From positions 133,198 to 197,197 of the IMG/VR virus record IMGVR_UViG_3300036761_001580: a stretch of 64,000 bases of DNA. One strand, 5' to 3'. Positions within the stretch are counted from its first letter, which is position 1; each line of letters opens with the position of its first letter. Made by a program: the position numbers and the translations under genes. Positions 9,676-39,473 of the stretch are shown piece after piece. A model generated the notes under the pieces. It saw nothing but the letters and a program-made list of their open reading frames with translations, did no database searches and had not been told where the DNA came from. Origin of the DNA: a virus.

Positions 9676-10830
9676 CTACCTCCCCTTCTTCTTCGACCGA
9701 GAAGCCTTCTTGACGTTGTGCGCCTTGGCCTTGTGGGGCCCGAGGCCCTTCGAACTCTTCGCCACGAACCCGCAGACGTCGCAAACAAGGCTCTTCGAGA
9801 TGTCGTTGGCCTTCTGGATGTCGTCTTCTGCCTGCTCGACAGCCGGATCGGATTCCCCGTTCATCAGGTCGAAAGCGCGCTTCAAATGAGCCCCTTCTTG
9901 ATCCTGAAGAGCCTGAGCCTTCATCTCAGGTACGGACCGAAGCGTGTGCGCCGCCTTCGGGGCGGCCTCAGCCTCCTTGGCATGGAGACCCAAGGACGCC
10001 TCCGACTCCTCTTTGGGGTTATACCCATTCCGGGCCCCTGCCTTGTATGCCTTGAACCTCTCCTGGAGGTTGGCGTACTTCCCGTTCGAAGAGATCACCT
10101 TCACCCACTCCTTGAGCGCGCTGTAGGTCCTCGGCAGTGTGTAGTCCGCCTTCTCGCCCTCACCAGGCTCGTCCTTCCCGAACAGCGCGTTCCGGATGAG
10201 CTGCTTCTTCGACTCCTCGTCGAACACGTTCTCCTTCAACCACATGAGAACGCCGTAGACGGGGTCCACCTCGTTGAAACGAGCCTCGGCGACCTCCAGG
10301 CTCCTGTGGTGGAAGTCGATCTGCGTGAGGAGTGCCTCGTGCTCCTCCGAGAAGGCCTCCACGACCTTGTTGAAGGTCATGATCTCGAAGGCCTCCCTGC
10401 CCGGTGAAGGGTGGACGACGTTGGGGTCCACCGGGGGCATCGTGATCTCTTCAAGCTCGGGGATTGGTACCACATCGAAAGAGTGGGTTGCTTGCTGGAG
10501 CTTGTACCCCCTCGGAGCCTTCTTTCCGAGCCACAACTGCATCGGGGGGTTCGGCTTGAGGAGGAACCTCTTGAGGTCGACCGAGTTCTTGAGGACCTCG
10601 AAGGGGAAGTCCAGCCGCAACCAGTTGTCCCCCCGAGGTATCAAAAAGCTCAAGGGCCTTCCTTCCCGCTCCAGCATCATGCTGATCTGGCCCTTGAAAA
10701 CGTTCCGAATGAACACCGGGCGCTCCTTGGAGAAGAACTTGTCCACCTCCCGCGCCGTCAACCTTTGCTTCTTCATATCAATCACCCTTTCGGCGTCCTC
10801 ACGCCTCTTCTTTGTGTTTGTACCTGTCAC
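9676..10830 (-). CDS. hypothetical protein with C-terminal C2H2-like zinc finger, 384 aa
   Basis: CDVCGFVAKSSKGLGPHKAKAH at the C-terminus, followed by a basic tail. The start may instead be the internal MKKQRL (10776) to avoid a 32-nt overlap with the polymerase gene. Confidence 0.5.
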   Translation of the reverse strand: MTGTNTKKRREDAERVIDMKKQRLTAREVDKFFSKERPVFIRNVFKGQISMMLEREGRPLSFLIPRGDNWLRLDFPFEVLKNSVDLKRFLLKPNPPMQLWLGKKAPRGYKLQQATHSFDVVPIPELEEITMPPVDPNVVHPSPGREAFEIMTFNKVVEAFSEEHEALLTQIDFHHRSLEVAEARFNEVDPVYGVLMWLKENVFDEESKKQLIRNALFGKDEPGEGEKADYTLPRTYSALKEWVKVISSNGKYANLQERFKAYKAGARNGYNPKEESEASLGLHAKEAEAAPKAAHTLRSVPEMKAQALQDQEGAHLKRAFDLMNGESDPAVEQAEDDIQKANDISKSLVCDVCGFVAKSSKGLGPHKAKAHNVKKASRSKKKGR

Positions 10831-13015
10831 TCCACCTTTGCACGATCTCCGTGTCGACCGTCAGTGGCACCCTGAACTGCGTGACCTCCCGCAGCCGGGT
10901 CGTCATGCAGTCGTCCATGAGGCGGCTCACCTGCTCGACGCACTCGACGTGCGAGTGGACCACCAGTTCGTCGTGGATATGAAGGATCGGAGCAGCCTTC
11001 AGACCGTTCTTGATGATCTCCCGGCTGATCCAGATCAATGACAACGACGCCATGTCGACCGCGGAGCCTTGGATGGGGCTGTTCACGGACTGGCGGAGTG
11101 CCCTGTTGACGATGCTCTGCGCCCGAAGCACCTCGTGGTTGATGACACAGGACCGAACGTATTGGCAGCTCCTACAGGAGCTAAACGTGTTCCCCTTCTT
11201 CGACTTGAGATGATCCTGCAACACGTCTACGGGCATCGGGTAGAGTTCTTCCAGAGGGATGCCCAGCCACTTCGGATACGGACCATCCTTCTTGTAGCAC
11301 GGAGGACGTTTCTCCCACGAGGGGCCCGGTACACCGTTCGGAATCAGGGTGGCCGCCTCTGGGAGATGCCGCCTGCGACCAAAGATGTTCCGAACGTAGC
11401 CGTACCTCTTGACAAACTCATGGGTATCGTCGATCCACTGCTTCAGCACCGGGGCCGCGCCGAAGTAGTCCTCCCAGATCAGCTTGTGGGCCTCCTCCTG
11501 TGAGATCCCGAGGCTCTCGGCAAGAGCTTTCTCGCTCTGCCCGTACGCGATGCCGAAGTTGATAGTCTTGGCATGAGAGCGCTCCTTGGAGTACAGGTCC
11601 TTCACCTGGTTGACCTCGCAGGGGAGGTTCCAGATCTTCTTCGCCATCGCGGCGTGCATGTCGTAGCCGTTGTTGAAGCCATCCACCCAGACCGGCTCTC
11701 CCGAGATGTGCGCGATGACCTTCAGTTCGATCTGGGAGAAGTCCTTGAAGACCATGCGGTGCGCGTCGTCCGTGCACCACATCGACTTCACGACAAGACC
11801 ACCGTTCTCAGGTCTCGGGAGTGTCGTCAGGTTGGGGTCCCGCAGCTTCAGGCGGCCGGTCTTCGAGTCCATCCAGTACTCCGGATGGACCCAGCCGATG
11901 TAGCCCTGATTCGTGATCTCGACGACCTTGTTCAGCGCCGGCTCGGCGTAGAGGTTGTGGATCTGCTGCGCGCGGCGGAACTCCAGGAGCGGTTCCCGGA
12001 TCGGATGCTCCAAGCCCCTCACGAAGTCCATGTCCGTGCTCCACGAACCGTCCGCGGTGTGCTTCCCTGGCAGCCCCATCACCTCGAAGAGCTGCTTGCC
12101 GAGCTGCTCCGGGGAACTCACCTTGAACTTCGCCCCGCAGATCTCCTGGATACGCCTAGTGTTGACCTCAATGATCTGCTCCTGCTCAGCCTTCACCTGC
12201 TGTGCCCGATGAAGGTCCAGAGGCACTCCGTGAAGCTCCATGAGCATCAACGTGTGTTGCAGGGGGATGATCAGGTTGTCGTTCAGCGCAATGAGTTCCT
12301 CGGCCTCCAGCATCGGCATGAACACGTACTTCAGCGACAGAGTCAGATCGGCGTCGGCGCAGCCGTAGGGGTAGAGGACGTTCAACGGGACTTTGGAGTA
12401 GCGCAACATCTGAGGATCGTAGAACCTCAGCGCTTGGGCGAGATCGCCCTTGAACTGGCTCGCCGCGGTGTCTAGGTACGCATCCGAGATGCCCAGCTTG
12501 GTCACCTTACCCTCGGCGCTGAAGTCGGATTTCAAGGCGTGCGAGGAGGTCACGCAGTCTTCATCCAAAAGCGTGTGTGCGAGCATCGTGTCGAACGCCA
12601 GGCTCCGGGTGTAGATCTTCATGAGGTTCGCGAGCTGCCGAACGTCGAACTTGCCATTCTGCGCCACCTTGGGGGTAGGGCTTTCGAGAATCTCCTTGAG
12701 AAGGTCCTCTACATGAACCTGCCGAGAGCCCCAGAAAGGCGAATCGTCCGAACGGCTCAACGGAATGTAGGCCGCGTTGCCCGGGGTCCAGGGACGAACG
12801 ATTTCCGTCCGCCCCCAAGAGAAAGAGATGCCGCACACCTTGTGTGGGTAGTTCCTCGGTATCTTGTCCTTCATCGACTTGGAGGTGGGGTAGTTGGTCT
12901 CGATGTCGAAGGAGAACTCCTTCGAGTCGAACAGCACCGAAGCCAGCCACGAGAACTTCTTGGGGCTGTCGATCAAGTGATAGGTCTTCGGGACCTCGAT
13001 GTTCGAAAAGAACAT
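10799..13015 (-). CDS. polA: DNA polymerase, family A (Pol I-like) with 3'-5' exonuclease domain, no 5'-3' exonuclease domain
   Basis: Exo I FSFDIETNYP, motif A KDFSQIELKVIAHIS, motif B KTINFGIAYGQS, motif C ILHIHDELVV. 738 aa. Confidence 0.9.
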   Translation of the reverse strand: MFFSNIEVPKTYHLIDSPKKFSWLASVLFDSKEFSFDIETNYPTSKSMKDKIPRNYPHKVCGISFSWGRTEIVRPWTPGNAAYIPLSRSDDSPFWGSRQVHVEDLLKEILESPTPKVAQNGKFDVRQLANLMKIYTRSLAFDTMLAHTLLDEDCVTSSHALKSDFSAEGKVTKLGISDAYLDTAASQFKGDLAQALRFYDPQMLRYSKVPLNVLYPYGCADADLTLSLKYVFMPMLEAEELIALNDNLIIPLQHTLMLMELHGVPLDLHRAQQVKAEQEQIIEVNTRRIQEICGAKFKVSSPEQLGKQLFEVMGLPGKHTADGSWSTDMDFVRGLEHPIREPLLEFRRAQQIHNLYAEPALNKVVEITNQGYIGWVHPEYWMDSKTGRLKLRDPNLTTLPRPENGGLVVKSMWCTDDAHRMVFKDFSQIELKVIAHISGEPVWVDGFNNGYDMHAAMAKKIWNLPCEVNQVKDLYSKERSHAKTINFGIAYGQSEKALAESLGISQEEAHKLIWEDYFGAAPVLKQWIDDTHEFVKRYGYVRNIFGRRRHLPEAATLIPNGVPGPSWEKRPPCYKKDGPYPKWLGIPLEELYPMPVDVLQDHLKSKKGNTFSSCRSCQYVRSCVINHEVLRAQSIVNRALRQSVNSPIQGSAVDMASLSLIWISREIIKNGLKAAPILHIHDELVVHSHVECVEQVSRLMDDCMTTRLREVTQFRVPLTVDTEIVQRWSDRYKHKEEA

Positions 13016-18606: not shown

Positions 18607-19340
18607 CCGCTCTGGTCGCCTTGCTGCAACCGGTAGTCCTCGCCGCCACCGACCTCGATCTGACGCAGGGAGCGTCCACCGATCACACCGTCAGGCCGGA
18701 TCTCCAGCACGGAGTCGAGCACCCCCTCGTAGAAAGACGAGAGGCTGCTCGGCGAATAGTTCGAAGTGAAGATCGTCGGGAGCCTGTAGTCCTGCCGGAA
18801 GTGCATGATCCGGTGCATCATCGTGAGCGCGATGTCCTTCTTCCACTGCGCGCTCCGCGACTCCGTACCGAGGTCGTCGACCACCAGGATCGTCGACTTC
18901 CAGGTCTCGTCATCCCAGCCCCGGCGCTCCTTCTCGCACATCTCGTGCATGTTCTCGAAAGCGTAGGTACGGCTGGGGCTGTAGTTCTCGGTCTTCGACA
19001 GCTCCCACAGGAGCACGTACACGAGGTAGTGCGCCAGAGTCGTCTTCCCGCGGCCATTCTCCTTCGAGAACAGGTACAGACCGAGACCCCGAGACAACAC
19101 CTCGAAGGGGTTGTTCACGAAGTAGGTCAGCTCGGTGGTACCCTGCTCGATGAGGGGCCACCGGTACTCCGGAGAACTCACGAGGTCCAGGGTCGACTCG
19201 TGGAAACCCCCGCGGGTCATCCGGTTGTACACCCGGAACTTGATGGCGCAAGTGCACAGGTCGTCACCGACATAGCCGGTGCCGGAGCACACAGGGCAGC
19301 TGCCCTGGATCCGCGCCTTCAATGGTGATCCGTCGCTCAT
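18594..19340 (-). CDS. DnaC/IstB-like AAA+ helicase loader
   Basis: Walker A ENGRGKTTLAHYL, Walker B ILVVDDLG. N-terminal CPVCSGTG..CTC zinc-binding-like segment. Start trimmed to the internal ATG (MSDGSPLK), which overlaps the upstream stop as ATGA. Confidence 0.7.
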   Translation of the reverse strand: MSDGSPLKARIQGSCPVCSGTGYVGDDLCTCAIKFRVYNRMTRGGFHESTLDLVSSPEYRWPLIEQGTTELTYFVNNPFEVLSRGLGLYLFSKENGRGKTTLAHYLVYVLLWELSKTENYSPSRTYAFENMHEMCEKERRGWDDETWKSTILVVDDLGTESRSAQWKKDIALTMMHRIMHFRQDYRLPTIFTSNYSPSSLSSFYEGVLDSVLEIRPDGVIGGRSLRQIEVGGGEDYRLQQGDQSGWPT

Positions 19341-20032
19341 TCTTCTGAGAGGTCCCTCAGCGAGATCGAGCACCCGACCGCGCCAGCTTCGAGCGCCCTC
19401 AACGATTTCCTCGACCAGCCCTCCAAGCGATCTTCCAGAGCCCGCAGCTCCTCGGGCATCATCCACGTCAGGTTCTTGCCCTCGGAAATCATCTGGAAGA
19501 GCTTCGCGATCTCCGGCTTGACTTCAGCGTGCAGAACCATCCCAACGTGGACCCGCCCGACCTCGTCGGAGTCGTCGTACAGAATCCCCTTGATCATCAG
19601 CCGGTCGTACACTGTCCAGCTGGCCGGAAACCGACGGTTGTTCTCCAGGGTGCACAGCTCCTCATCGATCTCCCGCATAGCCGCGAAGAACACGACCCTC
19701 TTCCAGTTACTCTGGCTGTCCTCCGGATTGATGTGCCCGCCGACGCCTATCGAGAACTTCTTGTTCAGCCGAGCCTCGTTCCCGCCCGAGCGCTCGTAGG
19801 TGAGGTAGCGCCCTTCAGAGGTGATCACCGTGTAGGGAATGACCTGCTTGTGCGTCGTGTCAGTCTCCGCCGAGGTGCGCGGTACGAAACAGGCCTTTCC
19901 CAGGGTAACCCAGAAGCAACGGATGCTGTTATCACACTGCGCGAACCCTGCGAACTCGGGCTTCGGAGGGAACTGCAACCCTTGAACAAAGGCCAAAGCC
20001 ACTTCGGGAACGACCCAGACCTCTTCGCTCAT
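19337..20032 (-). CDS. Nudix-family hydrolase
   Basis: Nudix-box-like GGHINPEDSQSNWKRVVFFAAMREIDEEL (G x5 E x7 REUxEE). Start trimmed to ATG 20032 (MSEEVWVV), overlapping the upstream stop as ATGA. Confidence 0.55.
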   Translation of the reverse strand: MSEEVWVVPEVALAFVQGLQFPPKPEFAGFAQCDNSIRCFWVTLGKACFVPRTSAETDTTHKQVIPYTVITSEGRYLTYERSGGNEARLNKKFSIGVGGHINPEDSQSNWKRVVFFAAMREIDEELCTLENNRRFPASWTVYDRLMIKGILYDDSDEVGRVHVGMVLHAEVKPEIAKLFQMISEGKNLTWMMPEELRALEDRLEGWSRKSLRALEAGAVGCSISLRDLSEE

Positions 20033-21186
20033 GGCTTCCTCCAATGGATGTCTTTCAGCCCCGTGTACTTCGAGATGTTGGTCCCACCCTCGTTCCAGAG
20101 CCCCAGGTACAAGCCCCACTTCGAATACTCCTCCCAGGTGGGCTCCGCGGACAACAACCGAGGATCGTCCCACTGCTTCTGGAAGAACTGGAAGTTCGAG
20201 GGCACGCAGCAGATGTTCAGGTACTTGTTCTGGGCGTAGTGCCGGCGTCCGCGGCGCTGCGTGCCGTCCTCGCGGTAGTAGTACCCATCCGCGGTGATGC
20301 ACACGATCTTCGAGGCATCGTCAGCATCCTCCGAGGAGGGTCTCCAGCCCTTCGGCAGGCAGTTGTCCTTGAACTGGCACCCCGTAGAGAGACCAAGGAA
20401 CCTGCGAAGGTCCCTCCAAGGGTCCCGCTGCATGGCCTTGATGGACTCCAAGTCGGGATCGAAACCGTTGGTGTTCAGAATCATGGAGATCAGAACCGTC
20501 GCGCCAGGGTCCTTCCGGTTCAAGAACTCTGCGCAGCGAGTGTACTTCACCTGGAGCCACTCGGCGGGTTCCACCCCGAGGCCTTTCAGGGCTGAAACCT
20601 TGTCCAGTACGCGGTGGTAGAGCACCAGGTACTTGGTGGGCGAGCCCTTCGCGCCTCTGGGGACCTGATCGGTGGCTACGAAACCGTTCAAAGGCAACCC
20701 AAGGTCACGCTTCCCCTGGACCTGGAGGTTGACGAACTCCATCATGAAGGTGGCGACCGTGTCGAAGGCCTCTCTGGAGCCGGCGGCAGCCCGGAGCTTC
20801 CGAAACCAGCTCAGTCTGCTGTTCTGAAAGACCAGGAGGGTCGGACGCTCCCACAGCTCGTACGCCGTCGTCAAGAACAGCAAGGTGAGGTAGCTCTTCC
20901 AGTTGATGCCCTCCTCTTCCATCAAGTGGAAGAAGCTCCGGAAGCTCTCCTTGCGGAAGCGCAGGAGCCTGTAAGGATCCTGGTCGTGCCAAGGCCTCAT
21001 GAGCCCTGTGTAGCCCCGGTACGTCCAGATCTGCCGCGAGAGGTCGATGAGTTCCGCGTAAAAAGGCTCCGGATCCAGCTGATTTTCACTATTGAAATAA
21101 ATCGGCTTCAGGTGTTGGTCTTCCGGCTGGGGTATGGACCCCCTTGTCAACTCCGCCTTGACCATCTGGTTCAGAAAGTCGTTCAT
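20029..21186 (-). CDS. hypothetical protein, 385 aa (function unknown)
   Basis: Clean 385-aa ORF with no recognisable catalytic motif. Flanked by the Nudix and SNF2 genes with overlapping stop/start codons. Confidence 0.55.
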   Translation of the reverse strand: MNDFLNQMVKAELTRGSIPQPEDQHLKPIYFNSENQLDPEPFYAELIDLSRQIWTYRGYTGLMRPWHDQDPYRLLRFRKESFRSFFHLMEEEGINWKSYLTLLFLTTAYELWERPTLLVFQNSRLSWFRKLRAAAGSREAFDTVATFMMEFVNLQVQGKRDLGLPLNGFVATDQVPRGAKGSPTKYLVLYHRVLDKVSALKGLGVEPAEWLQVKYTRCAEFLNRKDPGATVLISMILNTNGFDPDLESIKAMQRDPWRDLRRFLGLSTGCQFKDNCLPKGWRPSSEDADDASKIVCITADGYYYREDGTQRRGRRHYAQNKYLNICCVPSNFQFFQKQWDDPRLLSAEPTWEEYSKWGLYLGLWNEGGTNISKYTGLKDIHWRKP

Positions 21187-22994: not shown

Positions 22995-23425
22995 AAGTCC
23001 TCCTGCTCCATGAAGTCTTCGAGTTCCGCGGCCCGCTTGTCCTGCTCCGACACGGACGCGATCTCCACGAGCCGGCCCTTCAGCAACGGGTACCCGCGGT
23101 GGCCGACCCCTGGCACCACGATCTCACGGACAGAGACGTTCTCCCGCACCGAGTACAGGGTGTCGAAGGTACGCTTCTCATCGGTGCCGACCTTCGCGAT
23201 GGAGGTCTTGACGGAAAGTCGGATAGTATCCTCATTTCCGACATGACCCTGCCAGAGGTACCACAGCGACCCCTTCGCGGACTCCGCCTTGGAGGTGATG
23301 TAACGACCACCCTCCTTGAGAGTCGTCCAGGAGCACTCGACGTCGTTCACCCAGACCTGGACGAGCTGCCCGTCCCGGCTGCGGTTCGAGATCTTGCGGT
23401 ACCCTATCTGGGCGATGATCTTCAT
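22991..23425 (-). CDS. hypothetical protein (~145 aa, start trimmed)
   Basis: Track ORF 22991..23533, trimmed to the internal M (MKIIAQIGYRK) directly after the upstream stop. Confidence 0.4.
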   Translation of the reverse strand: MKIIAQIGYRKISNRSRDGQLVQVWVNDVECSWTTLKEGGRYITSKAESAKGSLWYLWQGHVGNEDTIRLSVKTSIAKVGTDEKRTFDTLYSVRENVSVREIVVPGVGHRGYPLLKGRLVEIASVSEQDKRAAELEDFMEQEDF

Positions 23426-24135
23426 CGTTTCGCATCGACCTCTTGCACGAGCTTCATCCACTCCTGGTCCTCGGAGTGCTCTGGCTCCGAGAGCTTCTCC
23501 TTCTTGGTCGGCGGCAGGTTGTACTCCATCCACCGCATCACGAGGTCCGGCACCGACTTGGAGATGGGCACCCCTGTGAGCGTGGTGATCCCCTTGGGAG
23601 AGAACTCACGGGCCTTGAACTTGTTGTAGAGCTTCACCGGGTGGACACCGAACTGGAGCAGCATCGAGATGGCGATGGCCCAGCAGTTCGCGAAGCCGTT
23701 CATCTCGTGACCGGACTTGCCCATCTCTATGAACACCTCACCGGGGGTGCCGTCGTCGTACACGCTCACGGTGAAGTAGCCCTCCACGTTGACGATCTCC
23801 CCGTCATCAGACTGGCTCGCCAGGCTGAACTTGCAGGTGCGGCTCTTCCGCTCGTCCGCCAAGTGGTAGCGAACCGGATTCGGCTTCCCCTGAGGGGAGG
23901 TGCCGTAGGGGGGCGGGCTGTAGTCTACAGGAACCGCCTCAGGTGGAGGCTCTTCCACTTTCACGTCAGAAGCTACCACCACCGCAGTAACAAGCTCCGC
24001 GGCGGGCTCCGCCTCCTTCTTCTCTGGAGGGGGCCAAAGTCTGACCTCATCACGGTTGGCAGGTTCCTCTTTGATGAGCATGGAACCGCTGTTCCAGATG
24101 TTGGTACCTTTGGGGGATTCTGAAGGTTCTGTCAT
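23422..24135 (-). CDS. TSCPD-domain protein (domain otherwise found at the C-terminus of class II ribonucleotide reductases)
   Basis: GEVFIEMGKSGHEMNGFANCWAIAISMLLQFGVHPVKLYNKFK...TGVPISKSVPDLV matches the TSCPD pattern (EvFinvGKaGsCasa..A..liS.aLr.Gv...SCPDai). N-terminal Pro/Glu-rich linker. Start trimmed to MTEPSESPKG. Confidence 0.5.
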   Translation of the reverse strand: MTEPSESPKGTNIWNSGSMLIKEEPANRDEVRLWPPPEKKEAEPAAELVTAVVVASDVKVEEPPPEAVPVDYSPPPYGTSPQGKPNPVRYHLADERKSRTCKFSLASQSDDGEIVNVEGYFTVSVYDDGTPGEVFIEMGKSGHEMNGFANCWAIAISMLLQFGVHPVKLYNKFKAREFSPKGITTLTGVPISKSVPDLVMRWMEYNLPPTKKEKLSEPEHSEDQEWMKLVQEVDAKR

Positions 24136-25679
24136 CTTGTCGTCCTTTTCGCTAAGAAGTCGTGAACCACCGTGGCAGCGTACCCCACGTCTCGGTCGTT
24201 CTGGGTCGACCGACACGCGGCCGACGGGTGCAGGCTGATGGCGACGTAGGCCTCAACAGGCCCTATGAGACCTTCAGGATTTTCCAGGATCTCTCCGCAG
24301 TGCTTCGTGACCCTACTCCTGTACGGAGTTACAGCCATCATCGCCTCGTTGCCGAAGGCGATGATCAGCTTGGGCTTCAAGAGGTCGATTTCGGCTCTCA
24401 GGTACGGCAGGCACGCCTTGATCTCAGGGTAGGTCGGTGGACGGTCGTCCTGGGAGTAGCACTTGCAGGTGTTCGTGATCCAGCACTCCCGCCGGTCGAT
24501 GCCGGCCTCCTCCAGGAACTGGTTCAAACGGCCTCCGGCAGGTGCCCCGGGGAAGAACGGCTGGCCGTACCGCCGCTCCTGAAGCCCGGGGTTCCTCCCG
24601 AGGATCATGATCTGCCGGTCGGACGAGCCCTCAGGGTAGGTCGGGCCCTCCGGATCGCAGTCCTGCCTCAAAGGGCACCGGTTGCACTGCGAGATCGCCA
24701 AGTCGACCTCTCCCAGAGAGGCCCAGGACCGATTCTGGCCGCTGTTCTGCTCCATGCACGCCACCATGCCCGTCAGGTCCGAAGAATAGGCTGGGAGCCG
24801 CCCTGCGTTCGTGAGGAACGTAGGCCCGATCCGCTCCGACAACACCTGCGACCGAAAAGCGTCCCTCGACAGCGGAACCGTGAGGCTTTCGACGAGGAGC
24901 TGGTGCTCTTCCTCCGAGAGGCACTCGGCAGCCTCTCGCAAGGTCGGCAGCTTCACGAGCCTGTACATCTCCGCGACGAATTCACCCTCAGGGAGGATCC
25001 GGGCGGTCGTCTTCCGCTTCTCCAAGAACTCCACATTCTCAGGGCTCAGGATCTCCCCGAGGCTGCCGAACTTCTTCAACAGCTTGGCCGCGGTCTTCTC
25101 TCCGACCTGCTTCACCCCGGGAAGGTTGTCGGAGGGGTCCCCGACGAGAGCCTTGAAGTCGGCGATCCTGTCCGGAGGCACGCCGAGGTCCTCCTCGACG
25201 ACTCCCGGGGTGACGAGGAGCTGGCGCTGAGAGTCCCAAACGTTCAACTTGAAATCGACGAGCTGCCACAGGTCCCGGTCACCGGTCACGAGCACGATGT
25301 GCCAATCCCCCGGAAGGCTCTTGAAGTGGTCCGACAGCCAAGCAAGCGTGTCGTCCGCTTCGACACCGGAGACCAGCACCTGACGAACCCCCACCGAGGT
25401 CAGGTAACGCTGCACGAGGATCCCCTGCTCATTGAGAGCTTCGAGATCCAGGTCGCTGTCCCTCTTCTGCTGGAGGCGATGGGCCTTGTACTCCTCGTAC
25501 AGCTCGCTGCGCCACCGAGACTTTCCACGGTCCCAGCAGACGATCACATCGTCGGGTGCGAACTGGCTCAAGACCTCGAAGATGTAGGTCAGGATCTTGT
25601 TCGCGACCATCTCCATGGGACTGGAGTGCGCAGCGCGCCACAAGAACGGGTTTCCGTCGATGAGGAGGACTCGGGGCAC
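24132..25679 (-). CDS. fusion protein: N-terminal 5'-3' exonuclease/FEN (Pol I 5'-nuclease-like) + C-terminal family-4-type uracil-DNA glycosylase-like domain with Fe-S cysteines
   Basis: 5'-nuclease motifs LLIDGNPFLWRA, GVEADD, TGDRDLWQLV, H3TH GDPSDNLPGVKQVGEKTAAKLL. UDG-4-like motifs CNRCPL, ILGRNPG (motif A variant), GRLNQFLEEAGI, CWITNTCKC, IIAFGNEAMMAV, LHPSA (motif B). Confidence 0.75.
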   Translation of the reverse strand: MPRVLLIDGNPFLWRAAHSSPMEMVANKILTYIFEVLSQFAPDDVIVCWDRGKSRWRSELYEEYKAHRLQQKRDSDLDLEALNEQGILVQRYLTSVGVRQVLVSGVEADDTLAWLSDHFKSLPGDWHIVLVTGDRDLWQLVDFKLNVWDSQRQLLVTPGVVEEDLGVPPDRIADFKALVGDPSDNLPGVKQVGEKTAAKLLKKFGSLGEILSPENVEFLEKRKTTARILPEGEFVAEMYRLVKLPTLREAAECLSEEEHQLLVESLTVPLSRDAFRSQVLSERIGPTFLTNAGRLPAYSSDLTGMVACMEQNSGQNRSWASLGEVDLAISQCNRCPLRQDCDPEGPTYPEGSSDRQIMILGRNPGLQERRYGQPFFPGAPAGGRLNQFLEEAGIDRRECWITNTCKCYSQDDRPPTYPEIKACLPYLRAEIDLLKPKLIIAFGNEAMMAVTPYRSRVTKHCGEILENPEGLIGPVEAYVAISLHPSAACRSTQNDRDVGYAATVVHDFLAKRTTR

Positions 25680-25691
25680 GACGACCTCACA

Positions 25692-26858
25692 TTAGAGTTT
25701 GCGAATTGACAACTTCTTCTGCGGCTCGCCTTCCATCTTCGCGAGGAGCTTCTGAACCTCTTCCAGCTTCACGGCTCCCGGGGCGTTCCCGGCAGCAACG
25801 GACTCCTTGAAGCGTGCCCACTTCAACCTGTCGATCTTCAGAGTCAGGAGGTCGTCGTTCCCAGACTCCTGGCACCACTCGATGATCGAGGCCTCGTCCT
25901 GGAAGGAGGACTCGAAGTCGTCCGAGATCTGGGCCACGAAGCCTTCAGCCTCCAGGCAGCCCTCGGAACCGTACTTCTGGATGAAACCATTGAAGAACAC
26001 CTGGTACGCAGGATAGCGGGCATCGAAGTTCATCTGAGCACGACTGAGGGCCTCCTGAGCTTCGAGATAGGTGGAGGCTGTGGTCCCGAACAGGACCATG
26101 TCGTCCCTTTTCTGCTGCTCAGCCTCTTCGAGGCGTTTCTGCTCCTCGGCTGCGAGCCGCTGGCGCTCCTGCTCTTCCTGCTCGGCACGCACCTTCTCCG
26201 GATCCTCGACGGGCTCGGACTGCGCAGCGGTGCCCGGGATCGGCGGAGGACCGGCCGGTGGCACCGGAAACACCGAAGGGGCGACCTTCAGGATGTTCAC
26301 GGCACCGGAGAGCGCGTAGGCCTGCTGGACGGACCAAACCGAAGGATCCCCTTCGGCCCGGCAGAGGAGCATCACGTCCCCCGCGGATTCAGCCTTACTG
26401 AACACCTGTACGGTCAACTTCGAGACCGCTGCGCTGGTCCACGCACCTGTGACGGCATCCTGCCGCCATGTCGGGCCATCGAGCTGCAAGACAGAGCCCA
26501 CCGGGAGATCCAGATGGGTCGCAGGAGGGACCCCTGGAGGGGTGGCCGGTGGCACCGCCGCCACTTCCGACACCTGAGCAGCAGCTTCGGAAGCGGAAGC
26601 CTTCGACTTCCCCACCCGGGACGGCGGGGGTGTGGACTCGGGGACCTCCGGAGGCGGATCGGCCGCAGGAGGAGTCGAAGACTCGGCCACGGAAGCGTCC
26701 ACAGGGCCGTCCGTGGGCTTCTTCTTCCCCGAGTGCTTCGCCGTCATGTGCGTCTTCAGGTACCGGGGGCTCGTGAAACCCCCTTTTCCACAAATACTGC
26801 AAACGATCTCAGGGGCTGAACCTTCTGCGGGAGCGCCAGCGTTGGCTTCGTCCGACAT
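25692..26858 (-). CDS. C2H2 zinc-finger / coiled-coil protein (start trimmed to ATG 26858)
   Basis: MSDEANAG..CSICGKGGFTSPRYLKTHMTAKH (C2H2). Pro-rich linker. Charged coiled coil (QEEQERQRLAAEEQKRLEEAEQQKR). GGAGGA Shine-Dalgarno 5 nt upstream of ATG 26858. The track's TTG start at 26963 is probably an over-extension. Confidence 0.6.
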   Translation of the reverse strand: MSDEANAGAPAEGSAPEIVCSICGKGGFTSPRYLKTHMTAKHSGKKKPTDGPVDASVAESSTPPAADPPPEVPESTPPPSRVGKSKASASEAAAQVSEVAAVPPATPPGVPPATHLDLPVGSVLQLDGPTWRQDAVTGAWTSAAVSKLTVQVFSKAESAGDVMLLCRAEGDPSVWSVQQAYALSGAVNILKVAPSVFPVPPAGPPPIPGTAAQSEPVEDPEKVRAEQEEQERQRLAAEEQKRLEEAEQQKRDDMVLFGTTASTYLEAQEALSRAQMNFDARYPAYQVFFNGFIQKYGSEGCLEAEGFVAQISDDFESSFQDEASIIEWCQESGNDDLLTLKIDRLKWARFKESVAAGNAPGAVKLEEVQKLLAKMEGEPQKKLSIRKL

Positions 26859-26966
26859 CGAATCCTCCAGCGGCCAAATAGCCGAAAACGCACCAGAATT
26901 TCCTAGCGCGGGTTTGATGTGGTTGTCCTGCACCGCCTTAAAAGCACGTACAATGCGAAACAACCC

Positions 26967-27021: not shown

Positions 27022-27564
27022 CTAGGCGCAGTAATCGTCGGCACCGGAGACCACGATGCACTCACTTGGGCAGTTCTCTATGTCTTCAAGGAAGACACAC
27101 TCGCCGGTATCGAGGTCACACTCTCCGGTACCCTCGACCCATATGCGTAGAGCTGGGATACTCTCCGGGTAGCACTCGTTGTCGGGGGGATCATCACACA
27201 CGACACCATCGCAAATACTGTCCATGCAGTAATCGTCCCCGGGGGCCTCGATGCATTCGTAACCGCACGCAATCGTCTCGTATTCGTACTCGCAGGCATC
27301 CTCGATGCACGACGAAGATCCGGTGTACTCGAAGAGGTTCCCCTCCTCGTCACAGGTGTCCGGAGGTGGGTCCGTGCACCCGTCGGCGCAGTCCGTATCG
27401 TAGACCTCGTCGGTGTCCGTGTCGGAATCGGCATCCGAGTCGGAGTCGATGTCCGAATCGGAATCCCCTCCATCGACCCCCGCGTCCTCCTCGAAGAGAG
27501 GAGAACCATCTTCTGCACAGCCGGCGAACAGAACCAGAGCCATGACCAACAGCATCTTCTTCAT
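27022..27564 (-). CDS. secreted lipoprotein with Asp/Ser-rich repeat and Cys-rich acidic domain
   Basis: MKKMLLVMALVLFAGC (signal peptide + lipobox FAGC), then DSDSDIDSDSDADSDTDTDE, then a region with ~20 Cys and many Asp/Glu. Strong SD AGGGAGG upstream of ATG 27564. The track start 27603 was trimmed. Confidence 0.65.
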   Translation of the reverse strand: MKKMLLVMALVLFAGCAEDGSPLFEEDAGVDGGDSDSDIDSDSDADSDTDTDEVYDTDCADGCTDPPPDTCDEEGNLFEYTGSSSCIEDACEYEYETIACGYECIEAPGDDYCMDSICDGVVCDDPPDNECYPESIPALRIWVEGTGECDLDTGECVFLEDIENCPSECIVVSGADDYCA

Positions 27565-27607
27565 CTCGGGCCTCCCTTTGTTCAGCCAAGTCCCTCCTGG
27601 CACCTAT

Positions 27608-38042: not shown

Positions 38043-39473
38043 CTACGACACGAGGCTGATGATGAGATCCGCCGCTTCCAAGTAGGCGTAGTCCATCGGA
38101 CCAATCAGGATGTCCCCCACCCCGGTCCCACCCTTGACCGCCAAGGTGACGTACACCCAATTGTCCACACCGCTAACGGACGCGACCTGAGCGTCGATGT
38201 CGAACTCCTCAACATCCATCCCAAGTTTCAACGAATTGATGTATGTGAGAACCTTGTCCCTAACGGAACCCAGAATAGTAGTCGGGTTGCCAGAACCAAC
38301 CTTCAATTCTGCCTCAACGACAATGCTCTTTTTCTGAGCCCAGCGATACAGCACATCGGAACCCATGACGAGGTACACGGGCTGTTTATACAGCGCCGTA
38401 ACGATATTGATCATCGCGTTGTATTGGTATACAATTCTCAAAGGAGCATTCAAAGCAGGGGCTGCCCCTCCGATGAGGAACCGGATCCCATCTCGGCCCC
38501 GGTTGCTGTAGGCGTAGATCCCCTCCCCGGTCACAACCTCGTAGTCGACCCCTTCGGTATAGTAGGTGGGCCCACTGGAGACAGCCGTAACCGAGATGAG
38601 CGGTTGCTTGGGAAGAGGAACCAGCTCACGCACACCTCGGTAGTAGGTGTCGTAGGTATCAGTAGCTGGAGCTGTAGACTTGATCCAGACATCTGACGCT
38701 CCCGCATCTTCAGATTGACGCTCCAAGTTTGGATCAGCCCCATAGACAACGTGGCTGTCTTCAATATTGCTCATCAAGTTCAATGCAAACGCTTTGAGTC
38801 CTGTAGGAGTGGCCTCCTGATTTCCTGTAATACGAGTCTGATACCGAATCGCCAGGTCAGAGTTCGTCTCCAACCCACGGCCTGTCGTAGTAGCTGACTT
38901 GTTCGTAACGTACTCGAAATCTGGAAACGACCGACGAAACTGGGTGATCGTGTAGGCCCCAACCATGGTGTTTCCGCCAGCAACCACGCTCACCGCGGCA
39001 ACATCGATCTCGTACCGTTGAGTCTGAACATTGTAGTACGATGACGGGGACACGGTCAATGGGCCGTACATAGTCTTCGTCTCGATTGTCCGGAAATTGA
39101 CAACCTGTCCAGTCTTCGGGTCCGTTTTAGTTGCCAACGGAAAATTCAAAGGGACTGTAATATCCGCAGAAGGAGGAAGCAATCGAGAAAAAGTAACGAC
39201 CGTATAGGAGGGGGAGCCCGTCCACCTAACCACGTTCTCGTTATAAACAAAAGCATCCAGATCCTCAGGATTGAAGGTCCCTGCATTCTGCATGCTCAAC
39301 AGTTGGCTGAGATACACGATGTTATCGTGAATACCCTTCATGACCTCGGACGGCGGGGTGATGTACAGGTCTCTGATCGGACCGATGTAAGTGTCAATAG
39401 TCTCATCACGAGACGCAATTCCGTTAGAAATAAGGTCCTCGAACTGGGCTACGGTTCTTCGCTGAATGACCAT
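38043..39473 (-). CDS. baseplate J-like protein (Mu gp47 / P2 gpJ / T4 gp6-like wedge)
   Basis: 476 aa. Synteny (after the gpW-like small gene, before fibre genes) and size. Call is from context plus general similarity, not a hard motif. Confidence 0.5.
   Translation of the reverse strand: MVIQRRTVAQFEDLISNGIASRDETIDTYIGPIRDLYITPPSEVMKGIHDNIVYLSQLLSMQNAGTFNPEDLDAFVYNENVVRWTGSPSYTVVTFSRLLPPSADITVPLNFPLATKTDPKTGQVVNFRTIETKTMYGPLTVSPSSYYNVQTQRYEIDVAAVSVVAGGNTMVGAYTITQFRRSFPDFEYVTNKSATTTGRGLETNSDLAIRYQTRITGNQEATPTGLKAFALNLMSNIEDSHVVYGADPNLERQSEDAGASDVWIKSTAPATDTYDTYYRGVRELVPLPKQPLISVTAVSSGPTYYTEGVDYEVVTGEGIYAYSNRGRDGIRFLIGGAAPALNAPLRIVYQYNAMINIVTALYKQPVYLVMGSDVLYRWAQKKSIVVEAELKVGSGNPTTILGSVRDKVLTYINSLKLGMDVEEFDIDAQVASVSGVDNWVYVTLAVKGGTGVGDILIGPMDYAYLEAADLIISLVS

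Follow-up and report, generated by a model that had tools for sequence, protein, structure and literature searches.

What might a phage do with a single protein that carries both a flap endonuclease (FEN) and a uracil-DNA glycosylase (UDG)? The question is raised by a gene on the minus strand of a 64,000-nucleotide stretch of viral DNA, positions 133,198 to 197,197 of IMG/VR virus record IMGVR_UViG_3300036761_001580, which we call the window. The complete coding sequence (24132–25679) runs without interruption for 515 amino acids to a TGA stop at 24132–24134, and we refer to its product as FEN-UDG. The reading that we favor, and consider moderately probable from the sequence, is that FEN-UDG would be an Okazaki-flap nuclease with an active, uracil-selective glycosylase coupled to the FEN. 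In this reading we infer both enzymatic activities, the uracil specificity, the iron-sulfur (Fe-S) cluster, and the coupling between the domains. The FEN-UDG architecture and the Arg-Asn (RN) motif of its UDG half are undescribed in the literature that was searched and are absent from the cultured phages, named proteins, and structure sets that were sampled.

A family-4-like UDG domain joined to a Pol I-type 5′ nuclease

The N-terminal half of FEN-UDG (residues 1–244) had been described as a Pol I-type 5′ nuclease, and the profile matches, the conserved catalytic residues, and the fold matches all agree with that description. Residues 4–164 (25188–25670, minus strand) match the 5′ nuclease PIN-like domain of Pfam (PF02739, 5_3_exonuc_N) with an E-value of 9.7e-26 and a score of 90.9 bits against a cut-off of 34.3. 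They are followed by an H3TH (SAM-fold) DNA-binding domain at residues 167–244 (24948–25181, minus strand), which matches PF01367 with an E-value of 1.1e-18 and 68 bits against a cut-off of 40. The FEN carboxylates D8, D50, E107, D109, D110, D134, D136, D181, and D184, the last two of which lie in GDPSDN of the H3TH domain, are intact in 85 of 85 aligned homologues, barring gaps at truncated N termini. Among the residues of the helical arch, Y64 and K65 are invariant and R68 is kept in 84 of the 85 (one homologue has R68A), and the AlphaFold2 model predicts arch helices at residues 66–74 and 79–95. The first 244 residues match Pol I and 5′–3′ exonuclease models in NCBIfam; their best solved-structure matches by sequence are the 5′ nucleases of Taq polymerase and M. 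smegmatis FenA, and Foldseek against the PDB returns FenA, T5 FEN, and ExoIX. This is the signature of what would be a working Pol I-type flap endonuclease/5′–3′ exonuclease.

The C-terminal half contains a family-4-like UDG domain with a predicted 4Fe-4S site at residues 331–498 (24186–24689, minus strand). A family-4-type UDG had been proposed here, and a profile search does put the domain in the UDG superfamily, with PF03167 matching residues 350–496 at an E-value of 7.3e-26 and 91.4 bits against a cut-off of 24.3. Structural comparisons support the placement: the best solved-structure matches by sequence are UdgX, Thermotoga TM0511, Sulfolobus UDG, and Thermus UDGa, and Foldseek against the PDB finds UdgX at template modeling (TM) scores of 0.74–0.85. 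All PDB matches belong to family 4, UdgX, or family 5, and no MUG, TDG, or SMUG model in Pfam or NCBIfam matches at E ≤ 1. The top UDG match in NCBIfam is the UdgX model TIGR03914 (residues 312–498, E-value 2.9e-29), with 102.3 bits, below its cut-off of 189.95. Between the two halves, residues 245–330 (24690–24947, minus strand) form an all-helical connector that has no family match and is modeled with a predicted local distance difference test (pLDDT) score of ~80–97.

Could the open reading frame (ORF) instead be an artefact, either two neighboring genes that faulty sequencing or assembly has joined or an ORF that arose by chance in GC-rich DNA? The window has a GC content of 58% and many long antisense or spurious ORFs, including a mirror ORF of 515 amino acids on the plus strand directly opposite FEN-UDG (24162–25709), which has no family or PHROG match; the simplest account of it is as the shadow ORF of a gene with 62.5% GC. 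Because this mirror ORF has no family match, the length of the FEN-UDG ORF is by itself no evidence, and the case for a real gene rests on domain statistics and homologues. A search of 5.8 billion proteins found ~90 homologous protein clusters, at 80% to ~30% identity, that have the same three Pfam domains, the same length, and the same start position as the window's protein, and these were recovered from separate metagenomes and data sources (JGI, ENA, Logan, and NCBI assemblies). With a homologue alignment, AlphaFold2 produces one compact model with a mean pLDDT of 95.7 and a predicted TM (pTM) score of 0.93, in which the connector is confidently modeled; because the pTM is so high for a two-domain protein, the model implies that the FEN and UDG domains would be held in a fixed mutual arrangement. 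Gene order is kept in relatives as well. From the homologue clusters, the synteny, and the AlphaFold2 model we reject the artefact explanation, including two genes separated by an undetected stop, as having next to no chance of being correct.

The translation contains every motif quoted in the preliminary description, namely LLIDGNPFLWRA, GVEADD (105–110), TGDRDLWQLV (132–141), CNRCPL (332), GRNPG (361–365), and LHPSA (483). The GTG start at 25679 is preceded by a Shine-Dalgarno sequence, GAGG (25685–25688, minus strand), 5 nt upstream, and lies 12 nt past the TAA of the upstream gene, which ends at 25692. None of the ~90 clusters carries a UniRef or nr name, and no place among 50,697 phage records covers ≥80% of the FEN-UDG protein. 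A genome scan for a copy in a host or prophage, made with FEN-half patterns, returned only bacterial Pol I/FEN 5′ nucleases, with no locus matching past residue ~302, and so did not point to a host. By Foldseek, no structure in the PDB spans both halves, nor does any in the BFVD set of predicted viral structures (best query-normalized TM score 0.49).

A complete uracil pocket with an Arg-Asn doublet in motif A

Four conserved cysteines, spanning 24411–24686 on the minus strand, are the predicted 4Fe-4S ligands: C332 (24684–24686), C335 (24675–24677), C407 (24459–24461), and C423 (24411–24413). All four are kept in 83 of 85 homologues, including members in which the pocket has degenerated, and from them we infer a 4Fe-4S cluster in the UDG half. 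Fe-S cysteines had been noted before and are indeed present, but the choice of ligands has changed: conservation points to these four, whereas C399 and C405 of 'CWITNTCKC' vary.

Motif A (residues 361–365; 24585–24599, minus strand) reads GRNPG instead of GE(A/G)PG, as previously noted and as both alignment and a string search confirm, so that R362 and N363 replace the Glu-(Ala/Gly) doublet of family 4. The LHPSA previously assigned to motif B is present too, and the full motif, HPSAACR (residues 484–490; 24210–24230, minus strand), fits the definition HPS(S/A)xxR with its catalytic His (PMC10359453); H484 is the equivalent of that His, and R490 is the equivalent of the Arg that binds the DNA backbone. 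We assigned residue equivalences from an alignment with UdgX and family 4 enzymes, read against the mutational map of Thermus (Tth) UDGa, in which E41, G42, E47, F54, N80, N89, and H155 were tested by mutagenesis (PMC5387724). R362 takes the place of E41, whose main-chain NH binds uracil O2, and N363 takes that of G42, the second position of the correlated motif 1 doublet. E368 (24576–24578, minus strand) corresponds to E47, the counterpart of UNG Y66 and a gate against 5-substituted pyrimidines; F375 (24555–24557, minus strand) corresponds to F54, which stacks on the base; and N403 (24471–24473, minus strand) corresponds to N80, which reads the N3/O4 face of uracil. D412 (24444–24446, minus strand) is at the motif 3 position of N89 and is Asn in most homologues of FEN-UDG. 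H484 equates with H155, which stabilizes the leaving group, and R490 with UdgX R184, which contacts the DNA backbone (PMC10359453).

The Asn gained in motif A falls where N18 of E. coli MUG positions the attacking water (PMC5387724). The catalytic Asp of UNG is at this position as well. TDG N140 and the equivalent Asn of SMUG1 also stand there, in the motifs GINPG (MUG/TDG) and GMNPG (SMUG1). As predicted from its sequence, then, the UDG half is a family-4-like Fe-S UDG with a complete pocket, and its sole departure is Arg-Asn for Glu-(Ala/Gly) in the motif A doublet. It would descend from the family 4 UDGs and probably work like them. We nevertheless file it as 'RN-type', neither UDGa nor UdgX, because its motif A and its curated score both fall outside family 4 and the features of UdgX are lacking as well.

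The RN doublet marks a broad and mostly stand-alone subfamily

GRNPG had been noted as an active-site variant of this protein. It is no peculiarity of FEN-UDG but the signature of a broad subfamily whose members are mostly stand-alone proteins. A HMMER search with residues 312–515 against 1.84 billion representatives gave 18,712 matches at E ≤ 0.001, 19 of them below 1e-30, and among the best 150 of these 18,712 the R-N doublet is found in 62 and the canonical EA or EG doublet in 49. Q-N or M-N doublets also occur within the best 150, mainly in N-terminal UDG-PolA fusions. Most of the 62 RN proteins (42) are ≤330 amino acids long, two are family A polymerases with a C-terminal UDG (P0141 and P0159), and the remainder are FEN fusions. 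The stand-alone GRNPG genes belong to the replication modules of phage-like contigs, where they follow a clamp loader, lie between DnaB and a DnaG-type primase, or have an SNF2 helicase on one side and NrdD on the other. We found no split pairs of FEN and UDG genes: the neighbors of the stand-alone genes are DnaB, primase, SNF2, clamp loader, and NrdD, not a FEN.

In a rough neighbor-joining tree of UDG domains, which has no support values, the RN-type proteins group apart from canonical family 4 and from the N-terminal PolA fusions, and the FEN fusions fall in two spots. The second of these FEN-UDG groups (P0090–P0094 and P0191; 550–575 amino acids) is nested among stand-alone GRNPG proteins, and their genomic context (L004) is unlike the synteny of the window. 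The two placements hint at either more than one fusion event or a tree artefact. Two full-length stand-alone UDGs (P0131 and P0134) are 44–49% identical to the UDG domain of the window's protein, and their genes follow a weak homologue of the gene upstream of FEN-UDG with a gap of 42 or 25 nt. Related phages thus appear to carry a UDG-only gene at the equivalent locus, where there is no room for a FEN beside P0131 or P0134.

Candidate RN-type UDGs in cultured phages were sought and rejected: the best matches, in Moorella phage MTATph1, Bacillus phage KLEB27-3, and a 595-kb uncultured phage, all have canonical GE(A/G)PG. A word-indexed search with a stand-alone RN query returned no named RN-type protein and mostly canonical family 4 enzymes. 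In the literature searched, neither GRNPG nor GQNPG gave a UDG-related match, and nothing relevant was found on FEN/UDG fusions. In a survey of 5000 family 4 sequences, the residues reported as common at the third position of motif A are Q, A, and G only (PMC10359453). The RN-type proteins form an undescribed, sizeable, and apparently phage-replisome-linked branch of family-4-like UDGs that comes in stand-alone, PolA-fused, and FEN-fused forms.

Several other fusions were seen during these searches. P0141 (L010:1942-4332) and P0159 consist of a 3′–5′ exonuclease and polymerase with a C-terminal GRNPG UDG, the reverse of the published N-terminal UDG-PolA order. The DNA polymerase gp163 of the SPO1-like Bacillus phage JL (L007:2941-3600) has an N-terminal UDG with motif A 'QENPY' and motif B 'HPNMVLK'; with 'QENPY', a polymerase-fused UDG again has a motif A that is non-canonical and contains Asn. 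A family-4-type UDG is fused to a DnaE-type polymerase (Pol III alpha) in Methanobacterium virus PhiF1 and in Pseudomonas phages Nican01 and phiK7B1, and a 1492-amino acid UDG fusion to a DnaE-type polymerase (P0229) looks intein-interrupted. Fusion of UDG to replication proteins extends past PolA.

The pocket is kept or lost as a unit

Across the FEN-UDG family the pocket shows an all-or-none pattern. All nine pocket residues are kept in 54 of 85 proteins, four or fewer are kept in ~22 of the 85, and few proteins are intermediate. In the ~22 degenerate members motif A is scrambled, motif B is destroyed, the GxPF loop is missing, and other residues stand in place of N403 and H484. These same proteins still conserve the four Cys, W400, T402, K406, the G443-x-E445-A446-M447 loop, G462, and R490. 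Nine of nine pocket residues are present in the clade of the window's protein and in the outgroup members that are most distant. In a neighbor-joining tree of the FEN half (again without support values), the intact pocket is ancestral because the outgroup (P0090–94) has nine of nine, and loss affects one large clade and three or more other places on the tree, which is probably at least four independent events.

Because 54 of the 85 proteins are complete, ~22 keep four residues or fewer, and there are few intermediates, the pattern argues that the pocket, where it is kept, as in the window's protein, would be selected as a unit for base recognition, most simply for catalysis. The UDG domain probably also has a pocket-independent function, in DNA binding or replisome architecture, that is enough to retain it. 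The family thus offers natural pocket-intact and pocket-dead versions of the same protein, which makes the catalytic-versus-structural question directly testable.

FEN-UDG in the replication module of a divergent phage

All real genes in the region of FEN-UDG are on the minus strand. In the order of transcription they are large structural genes (~1200–1600 amino acids), an unknown 423-amino acid protein, FEN-UDG, a TSCPD protein, an SNF2 helicase, a Nudix-like protein, a DnaC-like helicase loader (phrog_50), a DnaB-like helicase, a sliding-clamp-like protein, PolA, a clamp loader, RecA/UvsX, and an SbcD-like protein. The family A DNA polymerase PolA (10799–13015, minus strand; 738 amino acids) matches PF00476 with an E-value of 6.5e-82 and also PF01612. 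It had been described as lacking a 5′ nuclease of its own, and this stands: Pfam finds only a 3′–5′ exonuclease domain and a polymerase domain, and no UDG domain either. FEN-UDG had also been placed 'next to' this polymerase, which needs amending to ~11 kb away in the same replication module. We presume that PolA is the partner enzyme of FEN-UDG. By analogy with T5 D15 and the 5′ nuclease of Pol I, the FEN half would remove primers and flaps on the lagging strand, because PolA is without a 5′ nuclease while the phage encodes a helicase, a clamp, and a clamp loader.

The TSCPD-domain gene directly downstream of FEN-UDG (23422–24135, minus strand; PF12637, E-value 2.1e-8) has a probable ATG start at 24135. 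The ORF as listed (23422–24216) would begin at a GTG and overlap FEN-UDG by 85 nt; an ATG in the same frame at 24135 shares the sequence ATGA with the FEN-UDG stop and is preceded by AAGGA, a layout that points to probable translational coupling of the TSCPD gene to FEN-UDG. A TSCPD gene is also close to FEN-UDG on the contig of a 44%-identical relative (L001).

The upstream 423-amino acid protein (25692–26963, minus strand) has no family match. It contains a C2H2-like motif, CSIC-x13-H-x4-H, a Pro/Ala-rich stretch, and a Glu/Gln-rich coiled-coil-like segment, and weak homologues lie directly upstream of stand-alone UDG genes on two other contigs (L015 and L016). A second ORF, at 9676–10830, has a weak zf_C2H2_ZHX match (E-value 0.005). 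Farther upstream on the minus strand, the small protein at 27022–27603 has a lipoprotein-like signal (MKKMLLVMALVLFAGC), long Asp/Ser-rich repeats, many Cys, and no family match; judging from these features, it may be a phage-encoded envelope or exclusion lipoprotein. The Nudix-like protein (19337–20302, minus strand) has the box GGHINPEDS...REIDEEL and matches phrog_8902, of unknown function, with an E-value of 2e-34, with no Pfam match at E ≤ 0.01; as a putative nucleotide pyrophosphatase in the replication module it could bear on control of the dUTP/dNTP pool.

The structural module (28192–63689, minus strand) consists of very large genes, encoding proteins of 1580, 1232, 911, 852, 834, 788, and 764 amino acids, with nearly no PHROG or Pfam matches; only a baseplate wedge protein (38043–39473) is recognized. 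The order structural genes, FEN-UDG, (TSCPD), SNF2, DnaB, primase is kept on 180-kb contigs that encode 44% and 33% identical homologues, with the DnaG-type primase downstream of DnaB in two of the related contigs (L001 and L003). Near-identical FEN-UDG proteins are found on contigs of 205–212 kb, and no cultured relative of PolA exceeds ~31% identity. The source is probably an uncharacterized, highly divergent lineage of myovirus-like phages whose genome would be roughly 200 kb, since PolA has no close cultured relative and the structural genes are nearly without PHROG matches except for the baseplate wedge.

Gene absences bearing on nucleotide metabolism and repair cover about a third of this ~200-kb genome. 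With that scope, the 64 kb of the window and the flanks sampled in relatives show no thymidylate-synthase-like, hydroxymethylase, dCTP deaminase, dUTPase, or base-modifying gene and no ligase, AP endonuclease, or PolX gene, and a walk of ~8 kb beyond the SbcD-like gene met no annotated nucleotide-metabolism genes.

Catalytic, structural, or altered function of the UDG half

How would an active UDG serve a flap endonuclease? In the mechanism that we favor, strand displacement by PolA would generate 5′ flaps, and these, along with RNA primers, would be removed by the FEN half during lagging-strand synthesis. The helical connector would hold the 4Fe-4S UDG domain against the FEN half. At the fork, the UDG module would flip out and excise uracil near a nick or flap, whether the uracil came from misincorporated dUMP or from deaminated C. 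The resulting abasic site could then be cleared by nick translation of the long-patch type, with PolA displacing the strand and the FEN domain of the same protein cutting the flap. A second, pocket-independent UDG role, in DNA binding or replisome docking, would retain the domain in the lineages that have lost the pocket. That uracil processing is linked to flap removal was part of the preliminary description; the proposal is reasonable and fits the UDG-PolA fusions in which the UDG takes the place that the 5′ nuclease has in Pol I (10.1101/2025.03.26.645540). Also in favor of an active enzyme, the RN doublet is conserved throughout a subfamily, and covariation of the doublet is known to keep activity in Tth UDGa, where changing EG to QD costs 5-fold vs 888-fold for E41Q alone (PMC5387724).

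Several observations weigh against this reading. The UDG half scores 99.1 bits with the family 4 model of NCBIfam, TIGR00758 (E-value 2.2e-28), below the cut-off of 125.3, and it misses the curated UdgX cut-off too (102 vs 190 bits). In Tth UDGa, the single substitutions E41A, E41D, E41N, and E41Q of the motif A Glu are all strongly deleterious (PMC5387724), and in the H109S background of UdgX, E52N costs 75-fold (PMC10359453). Because each tested single substitution of this Glu is deleterious in the canonical enzymes, an Arg at its position could make a weak or altered enzyme. The repeated loss of the pocket from a domain that is nonetheless kept means that catalysis is dispensable for at least part of what the domain does. 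Finally, neither the window nor the 8 kb past its left edge contains an AP endonuclease, ligase, or PolX gene, which leaves the remaining repair pathway undocumented.

Is the UDG half an enzyme at all? In poxviruses the UDG is a processivity subunit, and the domain here might likewise be a non-catalytic, Fe-S DNA-binding, processivity, or docking module, possibly a uracil or lesion sensor, with the FEN half as the only enzyme. We consider this explanation rather unlikely for the window's protein, and it draws its strength from the ~22 of 85 homologues that have lost motifs A and B and the GxPF loop, in what were probably at least four losses, yet keep the four Cys, K406, the G443-x-E445-A446-M447 loop, and R490. 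The motif A Glu, which matters in family 4 and UdgX, is moreover replaced by Arg in the RN doublet, and the N4-like UDG-PolA proteins set a precedent for an inactive UDG that is retained (PMC10201439). A purely architectural domain would not be expected to keep the nine pocket residues, including the His and the gained Asn, as the window's clade and the distant outgroup do, and dozens of RN-type proteins that stand alone, with no FEN for the domain to help, conserve this pocket too. The preliminary description had itself offered either altered specificity or a non-catalytic lesion binder. The non-catalytic part does not suit this protein, with its nine pocket residues strictly conserved in the clade and an Asn at the MUG/UNG catalytic position, and it does suit the ~22 members that have lost the pocket. 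Altered specificity is a different matter, since the enzyme would be active and the RN doublet would direct it to 5-hydroxymethyluracil, mismatched T, or hypoxanthine/xanthine, as in MUG and SMUG1, or to policing a modified phage genome, as proposed for SPO1-/SP15-type phages. Families 2 and 3, which have broader specificity, are marked by an Asn in motif A (GINPG and GMNPG), and the closest cultured-phage relatives of the domain are the PolA-fused UDGs of phages with 5-hydroxymethyluracil or hypermodified T, one of which is flanked by pyrimidine hydroxymethylase and thymidylate synthase genes. We think this improbable here: E368, the Tth E47/UNG Y66-type gate, and N403 (N80) are strictly conserved, which argues for a uracil-shaped pocket, and no T-modification genes were found in the window and the sampled flanks of relatives, about a third of the genome. 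Very improbable is a UdgX-type suicide enzyme that becomes crosslinked to the abasic site and tethers the FEN to the lesion. UdgX does provide the best PDB matches by sequence and fold (E ~1e-19), and TIGR03914 is the top UDG match in NCBIfam, but the R-loop KRRIH with its nucleophile H109 is absent, the alignment having a 9-residue gap there (6L6S, 6AJQ), there is no GEQPG, and the score is 102 against 190 bits. We rejected membership in UdgX on the missing R-loop.

A bolder form of the catalytic reading, which we regard as doubtful, would make the RN-type proteins a distinct virus-associated UDG family, with a MUG/SMUG-like water-positioning Asn on an Fe-S family 4 scaffold. FEN-UDG would on this view be a self-contained device for excision, coupled to the replisome: the UDG half would mark uracil in the strand displaced ahead of PolA, the FEN half would cut the abasic flap, and uracil would be cleared in Okazaki maturation without a dedicated AP endonuclease. 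If this were true, the intact and dead variants would separate the catalytic from the architectural role of a viral replisome UDG. The R-N doublet also bears on the evolution of catalysis across the UDG superfamily, where covariation of the doublet is already established, and the compact FEN-UDG enzyme is of possible interest to developers of nucleic-acid tools.

Comparison with known nucleases, glycosylases, and UDG fusions

Residues 1–244 share the fold, the carboxylate set, the arch, and the H3TH domain with the 5′ nuclease of Pol I, FenA, the T5 D15 FEN, and ExoIX/Xni, none of which has a UDG domain. The UDG half shares with the family 4 UDGa enzymes (Tth 1UI0, TM0511 1VK2, and Sulfolobus 4ZBX) the fold, the four-Cys site, HPSxxxR, the equivalents of F54, N80, and E47, and the motif 3 position; it differs from them in having R-N for E-(A/G), in its score below the TIGR00758 cut-off, and in the separate RN-type grouping of the rough tree. 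With UdgX (M. smegmatis 6AIL), its best solved match by both sequence and fold, it shares motif B and the DNA-binding Arg, but FEN-UDG has neither the R-loop with H109 nor GEQPG, so that the covalent mechanism is not expected. The Asn at the third position of motif A is shared with MUG/TDG (GINPG) and SMUG1 (GMNPG), whereas the second position is Arg here and those families are without an Fe-S site.

Viral replisome proteins with an integrated UDG are already known; a FEN as the partner is undescribed in the literature that was searched. Among the phage UDG-PolA fusions, the N4-like proteins are inactive and the SPO1-like proteins retain the catalytic residues (PMC10201439). The ~22 pocket-degenerate FEN-UDGs likewise keep the UDG after loss of catalytic residues, as the N4-like UDG-PolA proteins (PolA cluster 17) do, whereas the window's protein has an intact pocket, another fusion partner, and another orientation. 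For SP15-like UDG-PolA, an assay and cryo-electron microscopy show that dU is excised from the template ahead of the polymerase, with the UDG in the place that the FEN-like 5′ nuclease occupies in E. coli Pol I (10.1101/2025.03.26.645540). What FEN-UDG has in common with the SP15-/SPO1-like proteins (YerA41, phiLo, SP-15, SPO1, and SP-10) is a family-4-type UDG built into a phage replisome protein, and the N-terminal UDG domains of PolA are the cultured-phage sequences closest to the UDG domain of the window. Here, by contrast, the partner is a FEN, the UDG is C-terminal, and PolA is a separate 738-amino acid protein without a UDG; motif A reads GRNPG, in contrast to Glu (E53) at the second position in phiLo and to GEAPG in the one sampled UDG-PolA; and no T-modification genes are seen around FEN-UDG. 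FEN-UDG joins in one protein two modules that otherwise alternate at the same site in front of family A polymerases and, beside the poxvirus subunit and UDG-PolA, is a third wiring of UDG into viral replication machines, found in a large uncultured phage lineage.

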